Shown: piece after piece, positions 9,060 to 48,926 of the stretch
Numbering within the stretch: the first letter of the stretch is position 1
How the letters are laid out: each line of letters begins with the position of its first letter
DNA from: an uncultured bacterium
Lineage (GTDB): Bacteria; Patescibacteriota; Minisyncoccia; UBA6257; 2-01-FULL-56-20
Reading direction: 5' to 3'
Assembly: GCA_963844965.1 (NCBI GenBank)
Contig: CAWJQC010000009.1
Span: 62,037 to 126,036, forward strand
Length of the DNA: 64,000 nt
Position numbers and translations under genes: made by a program
The notes under the pieces: generated by a model
The model's input: the letters and a program-made list of their open reading frames with translations, nothing else
Database searches by the model: none
Told to the model about the DNA's origin: nothing

Positions 9060-10328
9060 ATGAATAAAAAAATTGTTTTTACGGCCGCTTCGGCCGCATT
9101 TCTGCTCGTAGTTTTATTGGCAAACGCCCAAATGCCGGTTCCTGCCGCTAATAACGCAGAAGCGTCTGGTGTCGGCACGGTGGCATCGAGCGCAACCGCA
9201 ACGGTTGTTCCTGGAGCCATGAATCCAACTTTTATCATCAACCCGGTATCTCCAACGCTTGGCGGAAGTAATTCTTCGGGAACACCGGTCATGAATCCGC
9301 CGATTATAGCAAGACCCATATTGCCGCCGACGCAGGGCAATAATATTATCCAATTCAACAACCTAACCGTACAAAGCGTTTCGGCAACCACCCCGCCGGC
9401 AGAAATTGTAGCCAATGGCGGTATCTATAACATTCAGAGCGGCGGCACAACACCGCCAACGATGCAGCCGATGAATGCGCAAGTTTTCCCGCAAGCCACG
9501 CAGACATCTTCAATGAATTATTTGCAATCCAAATGTTTGAGGTATGAAAGTTTAGAGTCAAATTCCCCGATGGTAATCGCCTGCCCTGTTCCTCAAACTT
9601 CCGCTCCCGCGAGTTCAACCGTCACTGTCTCGCCCGGAGCAACCGCAATAATGCCAGTAGTGCCACCGATATATCGCGGCGGACAATATCGTCTTGAGGT
9701 ATCCACAACGACCCACCTCATGTTTAATGACCGTACATCGGCGGCATTAACCGATTTCTCGCCCGGCGATCAAATAAACGTTTACGGCATATACAATGAG
9801 GACGGAACCGTAGACGCGCTTATCGTTCGCAATCTTTCCAAGCCGTTCACAAAGCAGTTTGTCCAGCTCAACAACGTTAATTTGGTTTCGGTCTCGGCGA
9901 CAACCACTCCGGCAACGCTTGTGGTCGCGCAGCAAATCGCCAATCCCTGTTACGGTTTCGGCACCGATGGTAACACTAGGCAGGGAGCCATAGCCTGCCC
10001 CACGGGACTGCAATCGTTATCCGACAATGCCGCGTCGCAGAATGTCACGGTGCCGCAAGCCATAATGCCCATTTTCAACCAATCGCGGAAGTATGTGATA
10101 CAAATCGACACGCAAACAATACTGATGGACCGTGAGCGGGGTACACTCGCGCTTGGTGATCTCAAGATTGGTGATCAATTGAATATTTACGGCGCGACGC
10201 TGGACACAAACGGCGCGACGATTAATGCGGATATCGTCCGCGACCTCACGCAACCTCCGGTGGCGCAGAACTACAGTGGCCGCGTTACTCAGGTGAACGC
10301 CGACGGCTCGTTCGTGATTCAGAACTGA
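9060..10328 (+). CDS. secreted repetitive protein with signal peptide; probably continues to about 10448 after a +1 frameshift
   Basis: It starts MNKKIVFTAASAAFLLVVLLANA. The second half shows internal repeats, for example QINVYGIYNEDGTVDALIVRNL and QLNIYGATLDTNGATINADIVRDL. After the stop, the +1 frame reads TDGGETYTVQNPIQVGATVQLKGLL. Confidence 0.5.
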   Translation: MNKKIVFTAASAAFLLVVLLANAQMPVPAANNAEASGVGTVASSATATVVPGAMNPTFIINPVSPTLGGSNSSGTPVMNPPIIARPILPPTQGNNIIQFNNLTVQSVSATTPPAEIVANGGIYNIQSGGTTPPTMQPMNAQVFPQATQTSSMNYLQSKCLRYESLESNSPMVIACPVPQTSAPASSTVTVSPGATAIMPVVPPIYRGGQYRLEVSTTTHLMFNDRTSAALTDFSPGDQINVYGIYNEDGTVDALIVRNLSKPFTKQFVQLNNVNLVSVSATTTPATLVVAQQIANPCYGFGTDGNTRQGAIACPTGLQSLSDNAASQNVTVPQAIMPIFNQSRKYVIQIDTQTILMDRERGTLALGDLKIGDQLNIYGATLDTNGATINADIVRDLTQPPVAQNYSGRVTQVNADGSFVIQN

Positions 10329-10515
10329 CGGCGGCGAAACGTACACGGTGCAAAATCCGATACAAGTCGGCGCGACGGTCCAGCTCAAGGGGTTATTGGA
10401 CCAGCTGCAAAAAATTATATCGCAGGTTTCTCAGATTATATTGCAGTGAATAACGGGCGAGAATCACCCAACCAAAAAAGAAGGCGGAAACTAGGCAACG
10501 TTTCCGCCTTTTGGC

Positions 10516-10683
10516 TTACACCGCCCAGCCATAGCCATCTTCCCATTGTTCACTGCCGTCTTCGAGCGGATTTATCACCCCGGTTTCTTCCGCTTCCAGC
10601 TTCTTCGTTTCTGGAGTTTCATTTTTTGGCCGTACTTCAACCGTCTTTCCATTCGATGTCGACTGATCGTAAGGTCTTGACAT
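10516..10683 (-). CDS. small acidic hypothetical protein (55 aa) with canonical Shine-Dalgarno
   Basis: Manual translation gives MSRPYDQSTSNGKTVEVRPKNETPETKKLEAEETGVINPLEDGSEQWEDGYGWAV. It is preceded by GGGAGGTGAACAATG. It is not in the ORF track because it is under 60 aa. Confidence 0.35.
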   Translation of the reverse strand: MSRPYDQSTSNGKTVEVRPKNETPETKKLEAEETGVINPLEDGSEQWEDGYGWAV

Positions 10684-11013
10684 TGTTCACCTCCCAAAGA
10701 GCTATCTGCGATTCAGACCGTTTTCTGGTCTGAAAATTGATTATTTTCCAAACAATCAATTTTCAGGCCGGCATTGATTTAAAAAACCTCCTTTGGCGGG
10801 GAGGTCTTTTGCATTTTGATTTTGATATTTTATCGGTTTTTTACATATATGCAAGACCCCCTCGCCGTTTTCGGAGAATAAGTACAAGCAGAAGGCCAAG
10901 AAGACTCCGGGAGGACAAGGGCAAACTTTGAATTGCGAGATATGGCGTGTTCATTGTCATTTAGGTTCAGTTTATAGTGTTTGTCGGCTATGTCAAGAGC
11001 GCCCTGTGGAAAA

Positions 11014-11379
11014 TTAAATGCCGCTGTTTTTCTTTACGCCTCGCGCCATTTCAAAAAGCGCGAGCGCTCCCATCAAAAGCCCGACGTCCCTGAACGTGAT
11101 GTCCAAGATGTTCAAATTCAGAACAACTATCGCCGCGAGCGTTATGGCGGCGAGGAGCGAAACCCAAACGAGCTTGCGGCCCCAGAAAAGAAAAGCTGCG
11201 AGTATTATCTCATAAACGGAAAATGCGGCGGAGAGTAAGTTTGAGAACGGCATGTTCTGCAAAAACTGGGGAAAATATCCGGCCCAGTCGTCGGATTTAA
11301 TAAGTCCGGCTATGGCGGCGTAGAAGAAAACAAATGCCAGTCCCCAGCGCAAAATAATCTCGGCGGAATTTCTGTTCAT
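11014..11379 (-). CDS. DoxX-family membrane protein
   Basis: 121 aa with 3-4 TM helices. The WGLAFVFFYAAIAGL...DWAGYF pattern matches DoxX-like proteins. Confidence 0.5.
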   Translation of the reverse strand: MNRNSAEIILRWGLAFVFFYAAIAGLIKSDDWAGYFPQFLQNMPFSNLLSAAFSVYEIILAAFLFWGRKLVWVSLLAAITLAAIVVLNLNILDITFRDVGLLMGALALFEMARGVKKNSGI

Positions 11380-11389
11380 CCGTTTGTAT

Positions 11390-12397
11390 TTACATTATAC
11401 CTTTCGGGGTCTTACTTATTCGCACCTCCGAACCTGGCACGGTCACCCACTCGTCGTTAACCAATTCCTGGGTTGCCTTGAAAGATACGACCGCTTCCTC
11501 TTTGGGATGAACTCGGTCTTCTCCTTTTACCATTCTACTAAAAATTACGTCGCGCAGTTCCCGTTTCTGGTCGTCTTCGTACTTGTGTAATATCTCGCAA
11601 TCGCTCAAGAAAATTTTATGCCAGCTGCCACTGGGGTAGCCTGGCTCCCCGATAATTTCTTCCTCAACTTCTTCAACGTCGTGTTCAGCTGGATTCGCGG
11701 GGGTGGAAGATATTTCCCTTATAAGACGACGTCGCTTATCGCCCTCACGCCATTCCCTGATGACTTGATATTCTTCTTTTTTCGGTTCATCCACGCCTGC
11801 TTGTTCCATGTTTTTTATTATCTTTGATACAGCCCGACAAGATACCGCTTGTGCAAGTAAATACCTATTTATCTCCGCCTCAAGAGATTTTTTGTCCGAA
11901 CCCGACTTTAAGTCAATTACAGCGCTTAGCGCGTAAATTGTAAAGTGATAGTGGTGAACTCCGGATGGCGGGCAGGGACCGACGTAAGAAATCGTACCCG
12001 AACCATTTTTCCCTTCAATACTGCCGGCCGGCAAATCGCCATCCTCAATAACGGACGTCTTCGGGTCAATGTTCCAAACCAGCCAGTGCGTGAAGCCGCC
12101 GGCCATCGGCGCGTCCGGATCGTGCATTATGAGCGCCAAGCTTTTTGCTCCGGCCGGCACGCCGGAAATATCCAACTCGGGAATTGTATTTTCCCCGTCG
12201 CAGGTGAATCTCCTTGGAATATAGCCGTTATTTTCAAATGAGGTGCTTGTGATAGTCATAGAATTATTTATTGGGTTATTGTTGATGGTTGATGTTGCTG
12301 GAGTCGTCGTTATCCGAGACGCACGAAAAATATAAGCCGATACGAAGATTATAGCAAAAATTATGAATATTACGGTAATTCTCCGCGTTTTAGACAT
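11390..12397 (-). CDS. membrane-anchored PEBP/YbhB-YbcL family (Raf-kinase-inhibitor-like) protein fused to an acidic C-terminal domain
   Basis: It has an N-terminal TM helix. FTCDGENTIPEL...ALIMHDPDAP..GGFTHWLVWNI...GPCPPSGVHHYHFTIYAL are PEBP hallmark motifs. The C-terminal 150 aa are of unknown function. Confidence 0.7.
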   Translation of the reverse strand: MSKTRRITVIFIIFAIIFVSAYIFRASRITTTPATSTINNNPINNSMTITSTSFENNGYIPRRFTCDGENTIPELDISGVPAGAKSLALIMHDPDAPMAGGFTHWLVWNIDPKTSVIEDGDLPAGSIEGKNGSGTISYVGPCPPSGVHHYHFTIYALSAVIDLKSGSDKKSLEAEINRYLLAQAVSCRAVSKIIKNMEQAGVDEPKKEEYQVIREWREGDKRRRLIREISSTPANPAEHDVEEVEEEIIGEPGYPSGSWHKIFLSDCEILHKYEDDQKRELRDVIFSRMVKGEDRVHPKEEAVVSFKATQELVNDEWVTVPGSEVRISKTPKGIM

Positions 12398-12486
12398 TGT
12401 TTTAGACTATCAATTTATCAGTATATTACCTTCAAAATTAATGTTAAGTGCCGAAAAATTCAGTAAAATCAGGAAAAAATCGGCTG

Positions 12487-12514
12487 TTGACAAATATATA
12501 GAATCTGCTACAAT
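12487..12514 (+). promoter_or_regulatory. sigma70-like promoter TTGACA-16nt-TACAAT
   Basis: TTGACAaatatatagaatctgcTACAAT, 85 nt upstream of the small ORF at 12600. Confidence 0.35.
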
Positions 12515-12599
12515 ATGAGCAGCACCACCGAGAAGATTCCGGTGGGCCAAAATCTGTAAACCGTCGCTTATCAAAGGCGACGGGACGAAGGAGGATGCC

Positions 12600-12806
12600 A
12601 TGGCGGCAAAAAAGGGAGTACCTGCTTTTCTGATTTCTTACGGCCAAGCTGGACGGGAACGGAACAATATCCGGACCGCAGAGGTTGTGGTGTGCGTGTT
12701 GGGTCGTTCCACTACCCACCACCTTGAACTTCGGGGTGGAAAGTGGCTTGGCAAGAACGGTGTGGAATACAAAATCAACGACCGCATCAGAAATCGTAAG
12801 AACTGA
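12600..12806 (+). CDS. small basic hypothetical protein (68 aa) with good SD; alternatively part of a structured non-coding transcript
   Basis: AGGAGGatgccATG precedes it. The protein is MAAKKGVPAFLISYGQAGRERNNIRTAEVVVCVLGRSTTHHLELRGGKWLGKNGVEYKINDRIRNRKN. It lies inside a promoter-to-terminator unit, 12487..13092. Confidence 0.3.
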   Translation: MAAKKGVPAFLISYGQAGRERNNIRTAEVVVCVLGRSTTHHLELRGGKWLGKNGVEYKINDRIRNRKN

Positions 12807-13063
12807 GAGGGTCCAAAAGCCCACCACCCAGGACCCTAATCGAGGAGAGTGAGCTGTGCCAAGTAGGTAGACCCGCCGCCGAGGCCTAAGTCGGGGGGTT
12901 GAGAGACCAAAAATTCAGTCAAAATAAAAACAAATCCCGCGCTGACCCCAGCCGGTTGTATCCAGGGTGATACCGGTCAAACAAAAATCCACACTGGCTC
13001 CGCGAAAGCGAGGCGAAGTCTGTAGAAGATAGCACTCTACAGAAGGCAGGGCGGCAGTGCCCC

Positions 13064-13092
13064 AGGAGAGTTGGAAGACTCTCCTTTTTTTA
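13064..13092 (+). terminator. rho-independent terminator
   Basis: The stem is GGAGAGT..ACTCTCC with loop TGGAAG, followed by TTTTTTT. Confidence 0.55.
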
Positions 13093-13165
13093 TTGTTCAC
13101 TCGCAAGAATACCCTATACCTTCTTGCAACGTGATGAGAAGGTGTAGGGATGAATTGCGATGTGT

Positions 13166-13350
13166 GAATAATAAACCCCTCCCCATTTGTGGCAGGGGTT
13201 TGGTGATAACACCCAGCGAGAGCCGTAAGGCGACTTCGTCTTTGTATGTCGTGTGCGCATAGTTTTTGCGGCAAATGGAGAGGGGTGAATAACCGCAAGA
13301 CCGCAGAGCGGCTTGGATACCGCACCGCTCTGCGGTGCGGTTATTCATTT
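13166..13350. repeat. structured intergenic repeat, family 1, copy A (about 185 nt, two long imperfect hairpins)
   Basis: gaataataaacccctccccatttg...caaatggagaggggtgaataaccgc...accgctctgcggtgcggttattcattt. Copy B is at 39175..39358. The hairpin arms are conserved and the interior has diverged. Confidence 0.6.
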
Positions 13351-13394
13351 TCTTTTCGGGAAAAAGGTGGCGATAGCAGGTTTAGTGGCCCAAA

Positions 13395-13730
13395 CTACGC
13401 CGCCGTTTTCATGTAATCGTTGTATGCCTGCCTGATCAAGTCGGTCGCAATCTCGCTCCTCGGTTTTGTCCGGCCCGGATACCGCCAGGCGCTGATAATC
13501 CTGCGGCGGGTTTTCGCGTCCTGGATCATCGTCCAGAGTTCATAGGGATGCTTTTTGCTGCCTCTGACCTGCATATAGGCGACCGTTCTCGGCGCGATCC
13601 CCTCTTCCACGCGCGCCGGTGAGTGGAGAATATTTTTCACCCGCTGTTCCGACAGACCGTAAAACCGCATCTTGGAACGCACGTGATTGGTCCAGTACAA
13701 AATTCTCGGCTTATTGATTATAAGCGGCAT
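13395..13730 (-). CDS. hypothetical protein; weak resemblance to BrnT/RelE-like toxin C-terminus (RRIISAWR)
   Basis: 111-aa ORF. The assignment is tentative and rests on memory of BrnT ...RIISAR.... Confidence 0.3.
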   Translation of the reverse strand: MPLIINKPRILYWTNHVRSKMRFYGLSEQRVKNILHSPARVEEGIAPRTVAYMQVRGSKKHPYELWTMIQDAKTRRRIISAWRYPGRTKPRSEIATDLIRQAYNDYMKTAA

Positions 13731-14165
13731 GGAGGGTTAGAAGTATTACCGCTTATTCATATTAACCTCAAATCCGCATCTTGGAAAACAAATAACTGCG
13801 GACATAAAAATGCCTGATGATTATGGATAGGCCCCCATAAGAATGGGGGCTGGGCCGCACCCGGAGGCGACTTATCGCGGCATATCTCCATTTTCAACTC
13901 TTCTGATCGCTGGTTGTTGGGCGCGGCGGCTGGGTCGCTACTCCACTTTTTCATTTTCATTAAATTTATTTGACTTGTTTGCTTGGCTGACCTTTGTTTT
14001 TGTTATTATTGCTTTCTTGACGAACTGGTTCTCATAAATTGTCGGCGATTTGTTTTTTATTATTATCATGAAAGAATTTTAGAATGCTGGCAGTGAATAT
14101 TGGATGAAAACACAAAAAAGGACCCCGTGATTGGATCCTTTTTTGATTTCCGATTTCCCGCACAA

Positions 14166-15254
14166 CTATGCGGCGTGCGGGAAAGTGACACGCACGATTG
14201 TGCCCTTATTAAGCTTGCTTTTTATGTTTATGCGCCCGCGGTGCAGTCGCACGATTTCGTTCACGAGCGCCAGGCCCAAGCCGGCGTGACCAGTGACTTT
14301 CGCGTCTTCTTTTTCGCTGCCTTCGCCCGTTCGGCCGGCGCGATAAAACGGTTCCATAATTTTGGGAAGGTCTTCGGGACTTATGCCCCTGCCGTTGTCT
14401 TTGACCGTCAATTCAACTTCGCCCTGATTATTTTTAACCACGGAAACCATGACGGAACCGCCGGCGGGAGTGTAAGAAATGGCGTTATCCAGTAGATTTT
14501 TGACCATTTGTTCCAGCGCTGCGGGATTCCCCCAGATCTGCACCCAGTCGTATTTCGCGGACGCCAGCCTTATTCTTTTCTCCTTTATCGTTTTTGACCA
14601 CTCCGTTTCTCTTTTTACCATCAACGAAACAAGCTCCGAAAAATTCAGCTTATAAAAAGGCGTCTGCGAGCGATTCGCGTATCTGGCGATGAACAGGAGA
14701 TTCTCAATGATCTTCGCCATCCTGTCCACTTCCTCCACGTTGCTCTTTACAAGCTTTACGGCGTCAGCAAGCGTCTCATCTGACGCGCCGCCGCGCAAAA
14801 AAATTTCCGAACTTGTTTTAATGATGCTGAGGGGCGTGCGGAGCTCGTGCGCGGCGTCCGCCATAAACCTTTTTTGGTCCTCCATCGTCTTTTTTACCGG
14901 CCGCAGAACCACGTTCGTGGCGAAATACAGGAGAACACTCGCTGCCGCACCGATAAAAACTTCAATGTAATTTTCCCTCCTGTCGATTTCGTTGAATTCC
15001 GCGGCCAACAGGCCCCTTTCTTCCTGACTGAGAGCGCGCGAATTTTCTATGGTTACCAGCGCCTGCTGCCTTTCGTAGCCGAACACGGCGTCCACGACGA
15101 GCGTGAAGACGATTATGCTCAAAATCGCCGCTATGACCAGCTTAAATCTTGCGGATTGCAAAACTTCTTCCCTGAAAAACCGCTCGCTCCCCCTCCAAGT
15201 CCTATCCTTTGAACTTGTAGCCCACGCCGTGAATTGTTTCCAGTAGGTCCTCAT
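14166..15254 (-). CDS. two-component sensor histidine kinase
   Basis: TM region. The HisKA motif is AAHELRTPL. The HATPase motifs are NLLDNAISYT...DNGRGI...GLGLALV. Confidence 0.85.
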   Translation of the reverse strand: MRTYWKQFTAWATSSKDRTWRGSERFFREEVLQSARFKLVIAAILSIIVFTLVVDAVFGYERQQALVTIENSRALSQEERGLLAAEFNEIDRRENYIEVFIGAAASVLLYFATNVVLRPVKKTMEDQKRFMADAAHELRTPLSIIKTSSEIFLRGGASDETLADAVKLVKSNVEEVDRMAKIIENLLFIARYANRSQTPFYKLNFSELVSLMVKRETEWSKTIKEKRIRLASAKYDWVQIWGNPAALEQMVKNLLDNAISYTPAGGSVMVSVVKNNQGEVELTVKDNGRGISPEDLPKIMEPFYRAGRTGEGSEKEDAKVTGHAGLGLALVNEIVRLHRGRINIKSKLNKGTIVRVTFPHAA

Positions 15255-15873
15255 GCCCCGCGAGTTTTTTCCTCAAATTTTTTATATGCACGTCTATCAC
15301 ATTGCTGAATGAACTGTCGGCGAAATCCCAAATATGGTCGTGAAGCTCCTCGCGATTTATCACGCGGTTAGGATTTCTCATAAAATATTCCAGAAGCGAA
15401 AATTCCTTGAGCGTCAGGGAAATTTTCTTCCCGCCCAGAACCACGTCGCGAGTCGCCGTGTTCAAGGCAAGGTCGCCCGCCGTAAGGGTCGTGGGCAGGA
15501 GAGATTTCTTCGGCCTGCGCAGAAGCGCTCTCACTCTCGCCACCAGCTCTTCAAAGGCGAACGGCTTCACGAGGTAATCGTCCGCGCCGCTATCAAGGGC
15601 AGTGGTCTTGTCCTCCACTGAGGGCCGCGCGGTAAGGACAAGAATGGGAATAGTTATCTCGCGTTCACGAATGCTCTTGCACACGGCAAACCCATCTTTT
15701 TTTGGAAGCATTAGGTCAAGAAGCACGAGGTCGTAATCATTGTGCGAAACGAGTATCCGCCGTTCCGCGGTTTGCCCGTCCGTCACGTAATCGGCCGCGT
15801 ATCCCTCTTTCTCCAAACCGCTTTTAATGGCTTGAGCTAATTTTTCTTCGTCCTCAACTATCAATATACGCAT
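15202..15873 (-). CDS. OmpR-family response regulator (REC + winged helix)
   Basis: MRILIVEDEEKLA...LVLLDLMLPKKDG...DDYLVKPF..LVARV.ALLRR is followed by a trans_reg_C-like C-terminus. Confidence 0.9.
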   Translation of the reverse strand: MRILIVEDEEKLAQAIKSGLEKEGYAADYVTDGQTAERRILVSHNDYDLVLLDLMLPKKDGFAVCKSIREREITIPILVLTARPSVEDKTTALDSGADDYLVKPFAFEELVARVRALLRRPKKSLLPTTLTAGDLALNTATRDVVLGGKKISLTLKEFSLLEYFMRNPNRVINREELHDHIWDFADSSFSNVIDVHIKNLRKKLAGHEDLLETIHGVGYKFKG

Positions 15874-15895
15874 GTTTTTTTCTGATGGATATATT

Positions 15896-15923
15896 TTAAT
15901 ATAATTTAAACCAATTGTGTCAA
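15896..15923 (-). promoter_or_regulatory. candidate promoter for the response regulator/kinase operon (TTGACA-16-TATTAA on minus strand)
   Basis: rc reads TTGACAcaattggtttaaattaTATTAA, about 22 nt upstream of the regulator ATG. Confidence 0.3.
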
Positions 15924-16013
15924 GGAGGGGGCCGTGCCGTAAACCACCCCATATTATTGCCCCAGCTCCACCTTAAATCAATTATGTAAAATAATCATGA
16001 ATTAATCATGAAT

Positions 16014-39117: not shown

Positions 39118-39174
39118 ATTATTATTTCTCCGCAGAATACCTCGCCGCTTTGCGGCGAGGATAAATGTGGCTAA

Positions 39175-39358
39175 GAAATAATAAACCCCTCCTCATTTGT
39201 GGCAAAAATTGCGCCATCGCAATATCAGAGCCGTAGGGCGACTTCGTCTTCGTATGGTGCATATGCATAGATTTTACAGCAAATGGGGAGGGGTGAATAA
39301 CCGCTTGACCACAGGGCGTTGCGGATATCACACCGCTCTGCGGTGCGGTTATTCATTT
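39175..39358. repeat. structured intergenic repeat, family 1, copy B
   Basis: gaaataataaacccctcctcatttg...caaatggggaggggtgaataaccgc...caccgctctgcggtgcggttattcattt, same orientation as copy A. Confidence 0.6.
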
Positions 39359-39475
39359 GTGTTTCCGCATTGCGTTCCTCGCTCCGGAGATCTTCAGATA
39401 TTTCCTGTAACGGAAACTGGACGGCGTGCGATATGCCGGTTTCCCTTGGCGATTCCCAACTTTGGCGTAATTTTT

Positions 39476-39596
39476 CATCCCGTTAGAAGCAGGTCACGGT
39501 CATACCGCTCCCGCATAAATTTGCTATTTTACCAAGTTTTATATAAAGCATCAGATAATCTCTTGCCGCAACGCGACCGCGGCTTCTAACGGGATT
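39476..39596. repeat. MITE-like element, family 2, copy 1 (about 121 bp, about 20-bp terminal inverted repeats ATCCCGTTAGAAGC...)
   Basis: catcccgttagaagcaggtcac ... gaccgcggcttctaacgggatt. Copy 2 is at 57419..57542. Confidence 0.55.
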
Positions 39597-39733
39597 TTGC
39601 TTTCAAATGTTTAAAGAATTCTATTTGTTTTAGGCGTTTTTTCGCCTCATCCAGCGTTTTGTATGTTCCGAATTTCCGGCTGGTTGTTTCCGACAACACT
39701 ACATATTTACCTTTAATTTTTTTAATCATTTAT

Positions 39734-46088: not shown

Positions 46089-46155
46089 TTTATTATCTTA
46101 CCAGATTTCTTTGATAATTCCTTTATCTCGTCCCTCAGAAGCGCCGCCAATGTGC
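46084..46155 (-). repeat. uvrB 3'-end remnant copy 3 (encodes LAALLRDEIKELSKKSGKIIK* out of context)
   Basis: It shares the 27-bp direct repeat atctcgtccctcagaagcgccgccaat with 46689..46715. Confidence 0.55.
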
Positions 46156-46160
46156 AAATA

Positions 46161-46190
46161 TTGACAAAACAAGAACCGCTATGGTAGAAT
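46161..46190 (+). promoter_or_regulatory. sigma70-like promoter TTGACA-18-TAGAAT, with GAGGAGG SD before the ATG at 46221
   Basis: TTGACAaaacaagaaccgctatggTAGAAT. Confidence 0.4.
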
Positions 46191-46220
46191 AACCGCAGTT
46201 GCAGATGAGGAGGAATTGAC

Positions 46221-46619
46221 ATGCTATTTCTGGTAAAAGTTGAATTATTTTATAAGCCGTGTGTTTGCCCAATTAGTGGCTCGACTTCAAGGACTATTGG
46301 CATGATAAACGCCGACTCGGAAGAAGATGCTGCGCGACAGTTAGGGTTGACTCGTTGGCCGGGATGGGAAAGAATTCTGGCCGCAAATAAGGACAACCGG
46401 GAAAAGAAAAAGGGGGAATATTTTTTCCTGAAGGAAGATACCGAAAAAATTGACGCCAACCCGCAGATGCTCTGGGAAAAGAGGGGCGGCAGGCCGAACC
46501 TGCGCGGCGTTACTTTCGAACTGGTCGAGATGATCACAAAGTTAGACCCGACAAAAACTTTCATGGCAGATCTGGCAGACATTCCACTTCCACTTCCGCC
46601 AGCATGGCGCTCATCGTGA
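46221..46619 (+). CDS. hypothetical protein carried between duplicated uvrB 3' ends
   Basis: 132-aa ORF with its own promoter and SD. No motif recognised. Confidence 0.4.
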   Translation: MLFLVKVELFYKPCVCPISGSTSRTIGMINADSEEDAARQLGLTRWPGWERILAANKDNREKKKGEYFFLKEDTEKIDANPQMLWEKRGGRPNLRGVTFELVEMITKLDPTKTFMADLADIPLPLPPAWRSS

Positions 46620-46630
46620 GCGCCGTTTTT

Positions 46631-46760
46631 TTATCCACGTCTGTCCACAAATTTCTTCTTTTCGCCAGAACTCTTGGACAATTCACGCATCTCGTCCCTC
46701 AGAAGCGCCGCCAATTCAAAATCTAAGCGCTTGGCCGCCTCGCGCGTCGTCGCTTCGCTC
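46631..46760 (-). repeat. uvrB 3'-end remnant copy 2 ([37 protein letters not shown])
   Basis: This is a second UVR-motif coding remnant. It shares gccgccaattcaaaatctaagcgctt with the intact uvrB end at 46889..46914. Confidence 0.55.
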
Positions 46761-46780
46761 CTCCTTAAAACCCAGCGGTT

Positions 46781-48926
46781 TTAACTCGCGCTTTGCGCTT
46801 TTCCGCCACGGGAAAACTCCCGTTTTCCCGACCCCTTTCCCGCGCGAGTTAGCAGTAATTTCAATGATTTTATCTCATCGCGAAGGATTGCCGCCAATTC
46901 AAAATCTAAGCGCTTTGCCGCTTCGCGCATTTCCTTTTCTTTTTCGGCAATCAGTTTCTGCAACGCGGTCTTGGACTTCGGTATCGGCTTCAGTTCCAAC
47001 GCCAGCATCTCATCAACATTCGGCAGAATATCGGAGATTTTTTTCTCTATCGTCTTCGGCGTAATATGGTGTTTTTTATTGTATTCAAACTGAAGTTTGC
47101 GCCGGCGTTCGGTTTCGGCCACCGCGCGTTTGATTGAACCGGTGATGTAATCGGCATAGATCAAAACTTCGCCGTTAACATTACGCGACGCTCTGCCAAT
47201 CGTCTGTATAAGCGACGTTTCACTTCGCAAAAATCCTTCTTTGTCGGCGTCCAAAATCGCCACAAGCGAGACCTCCGGCAGGTCCAACCCTTCGCGCAGG
47301 AGGTTGACGCCTACGAGCACATCAAATCCGCCGCGCACGCCGGAACCTTTGCGCAAATTAGTCAGAATCCTTATACGGTCAAGCGTTTTTACGTCGCTAT
47401 GCAAGTAAGTCACGTTGATTTTCTTTTCCTCCAGATAGGCCGCGAGGTCTTCCGCCATTCTTTTGGTTAGTGTGGTCACGAGAACTCGTTCCTTGTTCCT
47501 AACCCGTTCCTCCATGCGCGGGATTAAGTCATCAATCTGTCCGCGCGCCGGCCGCATGGTAATTTTGGGGTCAACCAAACCGGTGGGACGGATGATTTGC
47601 TCCACCGTTTGCGCGCTTTTTTTGCGCTCGTCAGCGGTCCGGCGTCGCCGAAGTATAAACGACCTGCCTGACTTTCGCTTCAAATTCCGGGAATTTCAGC
47701 GGCCTGTTATCTATCGCGGACGGCAGGCGAAAACCGTATTCAACCAGCGTCTTTTTGCGCGATGCGTCGCCCTCGTACATCCCTTGAATTTGCGGAACGG
47801 TCATGTGCGATTCATCAATAACCGTCAAAAAGTCCGGCGCGCCCGAATCGGTCCGCGGAAAGTAGTCCAAAAGAGTGTCCGGCGGCTCGCCCGCGGCGCG
47901 GCCCGACAAATGCCGCGAATAATTTTCAATCCCGTGGCAGTAGCCGACTTCCCGCATCATGGCGATGTCAAACTTCGTGCGCCGTTCAAGACGCTCGGCT
48001 TCAAGCAATTTGCCGCTCTTTTCAAAATATGCGAGCCGTCCCTTCAATTCTTCCAAAATCGCGGCAATTGCCCGTTCACGTTCCGGCGCCTCGGTTATGA
48101 AGTGCTTTGCCGGCGCTACGTAAATCTCGCGCAGTGTCGGCATTTTGTCCGGCTGAAACCCTACGACGGGGTCAACTTCGTAGATTTTTTTGATTATTTT
48201 TTCGCTGGCCGATCCGGATTTTACCGAAGAATGTTCTAGTTCAAAATTGTAAACTACTTCCTTGTCCGGCGGCATAATTTCCCAGTTATCGCCGCGCAAA
48301 CGGTATGTCCCGCGTTTCAGGTCGGAATTAGTCCGCGTAAACTGAAGCGAAACGAGTTTCCGCGCGAACTCTTCGCGTTTTATTTTGTCGCCGACTTTAA
48401 AGTGAAAAATGTTCTGTGCGTAAACTTCGGGCGCGCCCAAGCCATAGATACAGGAAACAGAAGCGACAACAATCACATCGCGCCGCGTTAGGAGCGCTGT
48501 TGTCGCCGCGTGGCGGAGCTTGTCTATCTCGTCGTTAATCAGCGCCTCCTTGTCTATGTAGGTGTCGCTAGACGGAATATACGCTTCCGGCTGGTAATAA
48601 TCGTAATAGGAAACGAAATAATTGACGGAATTTTTCGGAAAAAGTTCACGGAATTCGTTCGTAAGCTGCGCCGCCAGGGTTTTGTTGTGAGCGATAACGA
48701 GCGTCGGCTTCTGGATTTCCGCGATAACGTTCGCCACGGTAAATGTCTTACCGCTCCCCGTAACACCCAAAAGCGTCTGGTCTCTGTACCCTCTTTGCAG
48801 ACCGGAAACAAGCGACTTAATCGCCTTTGGCTGGTCGCCTGACGACTTGTATTTGGATATGATTTGAAAATTGTTCATTGAAAATTGTGCGGTCTGAAAC
48901 CCAAACGCCCCTCGGTCCGTAGCCAT
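46781..48926 (-). CDS. uvrB: excinuclease ABC subunit B (UvrB); frameshift near 47631-47683
   Basis: ORF 47631..48926 holds the N-terminal helicase domain ([15 protein letters not shown]). ORF 46781..47683 holds helicase C and the UVR motif ([16 protein letters not shown]). They are colinear. Confidence 0.9.

Follow-up and report, generated by a model that had tools for sequence, protein, structure and literature searches.

The DNA analysed here is a 64,000-nucleotide (nt) stretch of contig CAWJQC010000009.1 from an uncultured bacterium (hereafter the window). It is cellular, with genes for ATP synthase beta, UvrC, GDH, PGI, a two-component system and type I restriction-modification, and among named organisms it is closest to Patescibacteria, Candidatus Liptonbacteria being the best match. 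Our subject is a small promoter-to-terminator unit at 12487-13092, which encodes a basic protein of 68 amino acids (aa) and whose neighbours are PGI, GDH, the two-component system, PEBP and DoxX, with no recognisable prophage among them. The parts of the unit and its immediate surroundings are as follows.

12487-12514, plus strand: sigma-70-type promoter TTGACA-16-TACAAT (-35 TTGACA at 12487-12492, -10 TACAAT at 12509-12514)
12521-12599, plus strand: 5' untranslated region (UTR), with hairpins at 12525-12545 and 12561-12583 and the Shine-Dalgarno (SD) sequence AGGAGG at 12589-12594
12600-12806, plus strand: open reading frame (ORF) for the basic 68-aa protein, ATG at 12600, protein sequence including MAAKKGVPAFLISYGQAGR
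12597-12885, plus strand: closed long-range domain of the predicted RNA fold, pair probabilities 0.95-1.0
12808-12837, plus strand: hairpin right after the stop codon, AGGGTCC...GGACCCT with loop CCCACCACCC, mean pair probability 0.76
12924-12998, plus strand: conserved 3' UTR module, consisting of an A-rich lead, a hairpin at 12951-12977 (loop TGTATCCAnGGTGAT) and CAAAAATCCACACTGG at 12982-12997
13019-13043 and 13049-13062, plus strand: tail hairpins, probabilities 0.92 and 0.54, not conserved in the related contig L116
13064-13092, plus strand: intrinsic terminator (9-bp stem at 13064-13085, GGAA loop, T7)
12398-13394, no strand assigned: lineage-specific insertion of 997 nt, comprising the PEBP promoter region, the unit and element A
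11390-12397, minus strand: PEBP gene, flanking the insertion
12420-12447, minus strand: promoter-like TTAACA-16-TATACT (10/12), putatively the PEBP promoter
13100-13357, plus strand: structured RNA element A (copy B at 39127-39365, plus strand)
13395-13730, minus strand: 111-aa gene, flanking the insertion

The unit and its insertion site

The promoter agrees with the consensus at 11 of 12 positions in the promoter scan, its 16-nt spacer ends in TGC, which by sequence makes an extended -10 (TGn), and it is one of seven sites scoring at least 11/12 on both strands of the window. From a predicted transcription start site near 12521 to the terminator at 13064-13092, the transcript would be ~570 nt long. 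When terminators are defined strictly (a perfect stem of at least 8 bp, with at least six T within the next 8 nt), this one is among four in the window, or 128 kb of strand, and shuffled sequences contain none. Both calls are consensus matches only, and they agree with the near-consensus promoter and the strong terminator that a first-pass annotation of the bare sequence had placed here. The same annotation described a small, SD-equipped basic ORF, and this too is borne out: AGGAGG stands 5 nt ahead of the ATG and matches 6/6, and the 68-aa product has 14 Lys/Arg versus 5 Asp/Glu residues, is hydrophilic and lacks a transmembrane stretch.

Several properties of the ORF bear on whether it is a gene. 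When the transcript is shuffled with dinucleotides preserved, 0.3% of the shuffles contain an ATG-initiated ORF of at least 60 codons behind a perfect SD, and the gene callers of three public sources call the frame at 12600-12806. Because its SD matches 6/6 and none of the 25 core or trusted genes of the window (starts across 1-57 kb) reaches 5/6 of AGGAGG, the translation signals of the ORF look imported. The few perfect SDs in the window precede accessory-looking ORFs (starting at 12600, 36364 (DUF2844), 46221 and 4792 (HTH_17)). On a codon-usage log-odds scale for which 24 long window genes served as the training set, frame 0 of the ORF scores 0.075 per codon, the best of the three frames, and real genes score 0.16 ± 0.11 versus -0.07 ± 0.11 for spurious ORFs; with so intermediate a score, coding is neither proven nor ruled out by codon usage.

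The protein has no recognisable relatives in the collections searched. A word-indexed search of 5.8 billion proteins returned the ORF itself alone, and a full HMMER search of 1.84 billion cluster representatives returned the ORF and three further matches. These three were rejected as homologues because they are long repeat proteins, mutually unrelated, each covering a different 26-32-residue piece of the ORF four or five times over, as expected of summed-score artefacts. Back-translated scans of JGI metagenome contigs and IMG/VR revealed no relative, and sequence searches of Pfam, PHROGs, NCBIfam, PADLOC and the PDB gave nothing usable. AlphaFold2 (AF2), run without an alignment, predicts an all-beta product with a five-strand sheet (pLDDT 69), for which structure comparison found no fold match.

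At the nucleotide level the unit is a singleton, found in the source contig and in one identical 995-nt Logan contig. The latter (L001, from run ERR10755942) is an independent short assembly and 100% identical across the whole unit, beginning 393 nt upstream of it and ending 24 nt past the terminator; it would be relevant to expression if its library were made from RNA. When the unit was compared by nhmmer with 120 fetched loci (~1.2 Mb, mostly from the candidate phyla radiation, CPR), only this contig and a short match to the tail in L116 were found. No nucleotide homologue of 12515-12920 appeared in the fetched loci or in the phage and plasmid, metagenome or viral-contig searches; the unit has no match in 50,697 phage records or in IMG/VR, and the 1-kb insertion has none among phages and plasmids by blastn (word size 11).

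The setting of the unit was compared with relatives fetched through the PEBP and 111-aa proteins, whose own 110-aa protein is 69-88% identical to that of the window. In seven of them (L081, L083, L115, L117, L118, L119 and L122) the 110-aa gene and PEBP point the same way with 11-112 nt between them, and the gap in the more distant L082 is 4 nt. Since the same spacer measures 997 nt in the window versus 4-112 nt in these eight relatives, the unit and element A constitute a lineage-specific insertion. It splits the operon, separating PEBP from its upstream partner, and the unit is transcribed against the operon direction. Among the relatives compared, only the window and L116 carry an insertion in this spacer. 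Its distribution is patchy, because the closest relatives of both carriers by the 110-aa protein (L083, 83% identical, for the window; L118 and L119, 90%, for L116) are without it.

Two short sequence relationships within this region could each be due to chance. An A-rich direct repeat of 39 nt (12443-12481 and 12898-12936, 74% identical) encloses the promoter, the ORF and the beginning of the tail between its copies, the downstream copy ending just before the conserved 3' module; and an 18-nt stretch of the ORF (12666-12683) is 89% complementary to 13328-13345, the conserved terminator arm of element A.

A sister cassette with a different cargo

L116, an ENA contig of 2,564 nt, encodes a 110-aa protein and a PEBP that are 78% and 61% identical, respectively, to those of the window, and its insertion occupies exactly the same spacer on the same relative strand (cassette at L116 1133-1916, with a G+C content of 57% vs 48% in the flanks). 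The cargo is a protein of 116-125 aa that passes the Pfam cut-off for STIV_B116-like (E 6e-11), matches AFV3-109 and STIV B116 in the PDB and Csx16 in PADLOC, and has an intact GH motif; there are no CRISPR genes on the 2.5-kb contig. Proteins of this family, DUF1874, include the viral ring-nuclease anti-CRISPR AcrIII-1, and host-encoded ones are known as Crn2 (bioRxiv 10.1101/778746). Because the L116 slot holds a Pfam-passing protein gene, we regard the slot as a coding slot.

The two cargos are not homologous by any comparison made. The best tblastn match has an E value of 0.26, blastn finds no collinear match within the coding parts, and the 68-aa ORF has neither a match to the PF08960 profile nor the GH catalytic motif, which together define a DUF1874/STIV_B116-like protein. 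It would be tempting to see in the ORF a diverged DUF1874 remnant; we rejected this possibility, as the resemblance comes down to one 11-residue motif (TAEVVVCVLGR vs TADVLTTLLGR; p 0.038 vs shuffles, and 0.19) without the catalytic His. The first-pass annotation had named as its own refutation the finding that homologs show the region as a degraded protein-coding gene, and the comparison came out negative, the L116 slot holding an intact, unrelated gene. We likewise discarded the idea that the unit is itself a degraded gene: antisense and overlapping ORFs tested across 12444-13348 have no Pfam or PHROG match, and neither tblastn nor blastn links the unit to the L116 gene.

What the two cassettes share is the frame around the cargo. 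A 17-nt promoter block, TTGACAAATATATAGAA, is identical in both and is followed in both by TGn; the -10 of L116 is weaker (TAATAC), and the promoter scan does not call the L116 promoter. At the other end, a module of ~75 nt is common to both (nhmmer E 8e-4, blastn 1.5e-5), in which a lead rich in A is followed by a hairpin and then by a single-stranded block. Within it, TTGTATCCA and CAAAAATCCACACTGG are exact matches of 9 and 16 nt, and the loop GGTGAT is shared as well. The longest exact match in 300 shuffles was 14 nt, and the 17-nt and 16-nt exact blocks are collinear, in the same orientation and at the same locus in window and L116. The module can be written as the pattern GTATCCANGGTGAT-N(6-32)-AAATCCACACTGG, and the promoter block as TTGACAAATATATAGAA; scans of viral contigs with patterns for the post-stop hairpin, for the 5' UTR hairpin plus SD and for the 3' module gave no matches.

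The hairpin stem of the module reads GCCGGU/ACCGGU in the window, whereas L116 has GUCGG/CCGAC, and by inspection its pairing is kept between the two through changes of C-G to U-A and of G.U to G-C. In an alternative given by RNAalifold, the conserved loop CCAnGGUG pairs with conserved CACACUGG. The hairpin and a loop/CCACACUGG pairing could together form a pseudoknot, a possible model drawn from the two sequences. Since ~12924-12998 is the part of the tail conserved in L116, a functional 3' UTR element is plausible there. Because the promoter block and 3' module are far better kept between window and L116 than are the flanking core genes, either the shared frame is under strong selection or the cassette has moved horizontally, as far as the sequences can tell.

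The transcript and how it may be read

The predicted transcript folds better than its shuffles as a whole (z -5.25), and the plus strand folds better than the minus strand. The 5' UTR has a z of -4.25, with helix probabilities of 0.98-1.00 and SD bases that stay free in part of the ensemble (unpaired probability 0.28-0.60), and the ORF region has a z of -3.1. The dominant feature is the domain at 12597-12885, whose outer helix pairs the start-codon region 12597-12607 with 12875-12885 (GCC-A-UGGCGGC with GCCGCCG-A-GGC, probability ~0.99) and encloses nested helices 12619-12627/12861-12869, 12635-12642/12795-12802 and 12643-12650/12745-12752. Its z of -4.93, compared with 96 background windows (mean -0.7, minimum -4.23), is inflated because its boundaries were picked after viewing the fold. 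In L116, too, the early ORF pairs with the 3' UTR, an analogous long-range closure of the coding region, and the transcript has a z of -5.0 (20 shuffles). Because the coding L116 cassette scores so low, a low z is a property of these cassettes and not evidence against coding, and for the same reason we rejected the z score as proof of a non-coding RNA (ncRNA).

These results change the picture of the part downstream of the ORF, which had first been described as an ATG-free, hairpin-rich tail. The three hairpins then named do occur in the minimum free energy fold, with pair probabilities of 0.76-0.98. The tail alone, however, is barely above shuffles (z -1.5 to -2.2), and the strong folding signal comes from the 5' UTR, the ORF and 12597-12885; taken by itself, the tail lacks significant structure. 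It is true that ATG is absent, even over 534 nt (12600-13134), but this is at chance level and was discarded as a signal, since the window has comparable stretches without ATG in other places (524 and 629 nt).

Known RNA families offer no counterpart. The Rfam scan proposed at the outset assigns the unit to no Rfam 15 family (including OLE, ROOL, GOLLD, 6S, RNase P, SRP, riboswitches and leaders): at the gathering score there are no matches in the whole window or in the L116 sister locus, and at E<=1 the region 10000-16000 has only an unrelated Phe_leader match at 10705. ARAGORN finds no tRNA or tmRNA gene in the window. The comparison with homologous loci that had also been proposed could draw on one relative, L116, with the stem changes C-G to U-A and G.U to G-C.

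We suggest, with about even confidence, that the unit is a horizontally acquired small-gene cassette resembling a phage moron, whose mRNA has a start-codon/3'-UTR closure and a conserved 3' element. This reading is favoured because promoter, SD, ORF and terminator all come close to consensus, a combination that chance would hardly produce. The cassette, which is probably foreign, would have entered the short spacer within a conserved operon of two genes, in the orientation opposite to theirs. Its strong promoter would produce the ~570-nt mRNA, from which an SD unusual for the host genome would direct synthesis of the 68-aa basic, probably beta-rich protein; the ORF is thus likely to be translated. 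In the full-length transcript the start codon may be occluded in vivo, bound into a G+C-rich helix by the 3' UTR 275 nt downstream, so that translation would be favoured during transcription and damped once the 3' UTR is made, and the clamp would perhaps protect the RNA. The conserved module before the terminator could act at the RNA level, on mRNA stability or processing or as the source of a 3'-derived RNA, or at the DNA level as a handle for cargo exchange; promoter and 3' module would then be a conserved frame around exchangeable cargo.

Several observations weigh against the cassette reading. The ORF region has an unusual degree of structure, which one would expect of an ncRNA, and the codon score of the ORF falls between those of real genes and spurious ORFs. 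As the ORF has no homologue in the searches above, there is no sign of purifying selection on the protein. The G+C content of the unit, 53% vs a window mean of 48%, reaches only the 90th percentile of same-size windows, and the surroundings of the unit show neither a mobility gene nor a target duplication nor a prophage context. Finally, with a single sister cassette there are just two sequences behind the frame, and the compensatory change involves one or two pairs.

The structured ncRNA, 3' UTR or dual-function RNA of the first-pass annotation survives in part, in that the unit is autonomous, has an SD-led ORF and a non-coding tail, and is conserved in L116 over ~12924-12998; as a statement about RNA function it is weakened by the missing Rfam family, the tail's lack of significant structure and a z that does not discriminate ncRNA from mRNA. 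We consider it unlikely that the RNA role dominates and the 68-codon frame is incidental or secondary. Such a role would accord with the low z of the whole transcript and its plus-strand bias, with an ORF placed inside a nested, high-probability 290-nt domain that buries the AUG, with the missing ORF homologues and ambiguous codon score, and with SD-led initiation not being the norm in this genome. However, nothing in Rfam matches even at E<=1, 12515-12920 has no nucleotide homologue in the databases searched, the equivalent slot in L116 is a real protein gene whose mRNA has an equally low z, and the combination of a perfect SD, ideal spacing and a 68-codon frame is the 0.3% event in shuffles noted above. 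Were the RNA-only reading true, it would mean a large structured RNA known from one lineage, and difficult to study until relatives turn up.

It is also rather improbable, in our view, that the unit is an evolutionary leftover, namely recent or decaying foreign DNA in which signals survive and neither ORF nor tail has a current function. The singleton status and patchy distribution of the unit fit this idea, as does a tail that outside the shared module is neither conserved nor more than barely structured, and the A-rich 39-nt direct repeat hints at past rearrangement; yet the promoter, SD, frame and terminator are near-perfect, which is unexpected for decaying sequence, no frame has a trace of a disrupted known gene, and the promoter and 3' module have outlasted the flanking core genes in conservation between window and L116. 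A further possibility, a type I toxin-antitoxin-like locus in which a small toxin mRNA is silenced by 3' fold-back onto its start, as in hok, and an antisense RNA is the antidote, seems very improbable indeed. The ORF is small, its start codon pairs with the 3' UTR (P~0.99) and the unit is autonomous between core genes, but the protein is hydrophilic and basic without a transmembrane stretch, no antisense promoter exceeds the scan threshold inside the unit, the only terminator-like sites on the minus strand are weak (5-6 pairs, 12505-12524), that strand folds worse, and the sister cargo is a ring-nuclease-family gene rather than a toxin.

Comparison with known systems places the cassette closest to morons, and no system fits it throughout. 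Phage morons, as defined by Hendrix and colleagues, are promoter-ORF-terminator units lying between genes that are adjacent in related genomes. Like them, the unit brings a strong promoter and an intrinsic terminator of its own, separates two genes that eight relatives keep side by side, differs from its host in composition and translation signals, and carries a small uncharacterised cargo gene. Unlike them, it sits among core metabolic genes of a CPR chromosome with no recognisable prophage, is transcribed against the operon it interrupts, and has a conserved 3' UTR module in common with a second cassette of different cargo. In integron cassettes, an ORF with a 3' attC hairpin, one finds similarly exchangeable cargo, a conserved imperfect 3' hairpin and a fixed chromosomal site; integron cassettes are promoterless, whereas the unit carries its own promoter, and it is a single cassette rather than an array, with no integrase among the ORFs of 9-16 kb scanned against Pfam.

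Anti-CRISPR (acr) loci, where unrelated small orphan genes swap beside a conserved regulatory element, are a second parallel. The sister cargo is a DUF1874 member with the conserved GH motif, and the slot in the window is promoter-driven and holds an unrelated small ORF without relatives, a strong promoter and a small gene being typical of acr. The differences are that no aca-type regulator or aca-like HTH gene stands beside the unit, that there is no mobile-element context and no CRISPR or cyclic-oligoadenylate (cOA) signalling gene nearby in the window, and that the 68-aa protein is strongly basic whereas many Acr proteins are acidic. The unit's only link to such loci is that it occupies the position which a DUF1874 gene has in another genome, and because DUF1874 members also include the cellular Crn2, the sister itself may have a cellular rather than an anti-defence role.

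Two groups of regulatory RNAs share single traits with the transcript. As in hok-type and other fold-back mRNAs, the predicted pairing of start and 3' UTR closes the whole coding region; in contrast to hok-type mRNAs, the unit pairs through a segment other than its SD, lacks an antisense RNA and encodes no membrane peptide, and the pairing is predicted from one sequence. Dual-function small RNAs (sRNAs) are exemplified by SgrS/SgrT, RNAIII/hld and SR1/SR1P, and 3'-UTR-derived sRNAs by CpxQ and DapZ. The unit resembles these in joining a short ORF to a structured non-coding part and in having a conserved 3' module upstream of the terminator, but at 570 nt it is much longer, and its conservation is limited to two loci.

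If the moron-like cassette reading is true, accessory genes may enter streamlined CPR genomes as whole units running from promoter to terminator, which interrupt an operon and carry their own translation signals. The position shared with a DUF1874 (AcrIII-1/Crn2) cassette would then provide a testable guess for an otherwise unassignable protein, and the short conserved 3' UTR element might be used to collect more cargos from raw assemblies. A bolder proposal, which we regard as a long shot, is that the promoter block and 3' module are the fixed ends of an undescribed CPR system of exchangeable cassettes that brings varied counter-defence or host-interaction cargos into one spacer. In that case the 68-aa basic protein would be a new anti-defence candidate beside the AcrIII-1/Crn2-type cargo, and the 3' module would be a recombination or RNA-processing handle.

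Element A, a second unit and neighbouring genes

The unit does lie directly upstream of element A, as described from the start, where it was called repeat copy A. The element is nevertheless independent of it, because family members occur in other contexts without a target-like unit, and for this reason we rejected a functional link between the two. The A/B family has a 16-bp stem (5'-ACCCC.../...GGGGU-3') around a conserved 21-nt core, AGCCGUAAGGCGACUUCGUCUU, which was found in 30 metagenome contigs, mostly from aquifer samples, four of the 30 being chance matches in coding sequence. Compensatory changes are seen at 14 of the 16 stem pairs among 19 aligned members, a covariance model scores 105-115 bits on the plus strand vs 45 on the minus strand, and Rfam 15 has no family for the element. 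Members (L085-L104, L106-L108, L110, L111 and L113) stand in varied contexts, such as pilin-like gene arrays and cyclophilin, and full-length relatives with their own terminator are present in L096, L110 and L113. Judged from these sequences, element A/B is a real multi-copy, strongly covarying RNA family and a stronger RNA discovery than the unit. Just downstream of copy B, a long hairpin at 39467-39613 (plus strand; CCCGTTAGAAGC...GCTTCTAACGGG, then ATTTTG) has a stem that resembles those of L089 and L090, lacks the conserved core and is weakly matched by the covariance model (E 0.078); perhaps it belongs to the family as a degenerate or variant form.

Two neighbours of the insertion differ from their counterparts in relatives. 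In the 335-aa ORF annotated as PEBP (11390-12397, minus strand), residues 54-184 match PEBP and residues 189-335 match a separate gene of 133-136 aa that follows PEBP in L081 and L083, so that the ORF is a fusion, either a true one or the result of a lost stop codon; the public annotation gives a shorter, 289-aa product. A histidine kinase and response regulator pair (14166-15873, minus strand) lies between PGI and the 111-aa gene, whereas in L081 and L083 PGI is directly followed by the 110-aa gene or by other genes. From this synteny, the pair appears to be another local insertion in the same syntenic block.

Elsewhere in the window there is a second unit of promoter, SD, ORF and terminator.

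46161-46632, plus strand: promoter TTGACA-18-TAGAAT, perfect SD, ORF and strict terminator at 46606-46624

Its 132-aa ORF has no Pfam match, and it has no sequence similarity to the unit at 12487-13092. It stands between a GNAT gene and uvrB, against the gene direction. The direct repeats on either side of it are 51 nt long and 84% identical, and their sequence is that of the uvrB 3' end; an additional partial copy at 46872-46928 brings the repeat-bearing region to 46101-46928. Judging by these repeats, the second unit looks like an integration with target duplication.

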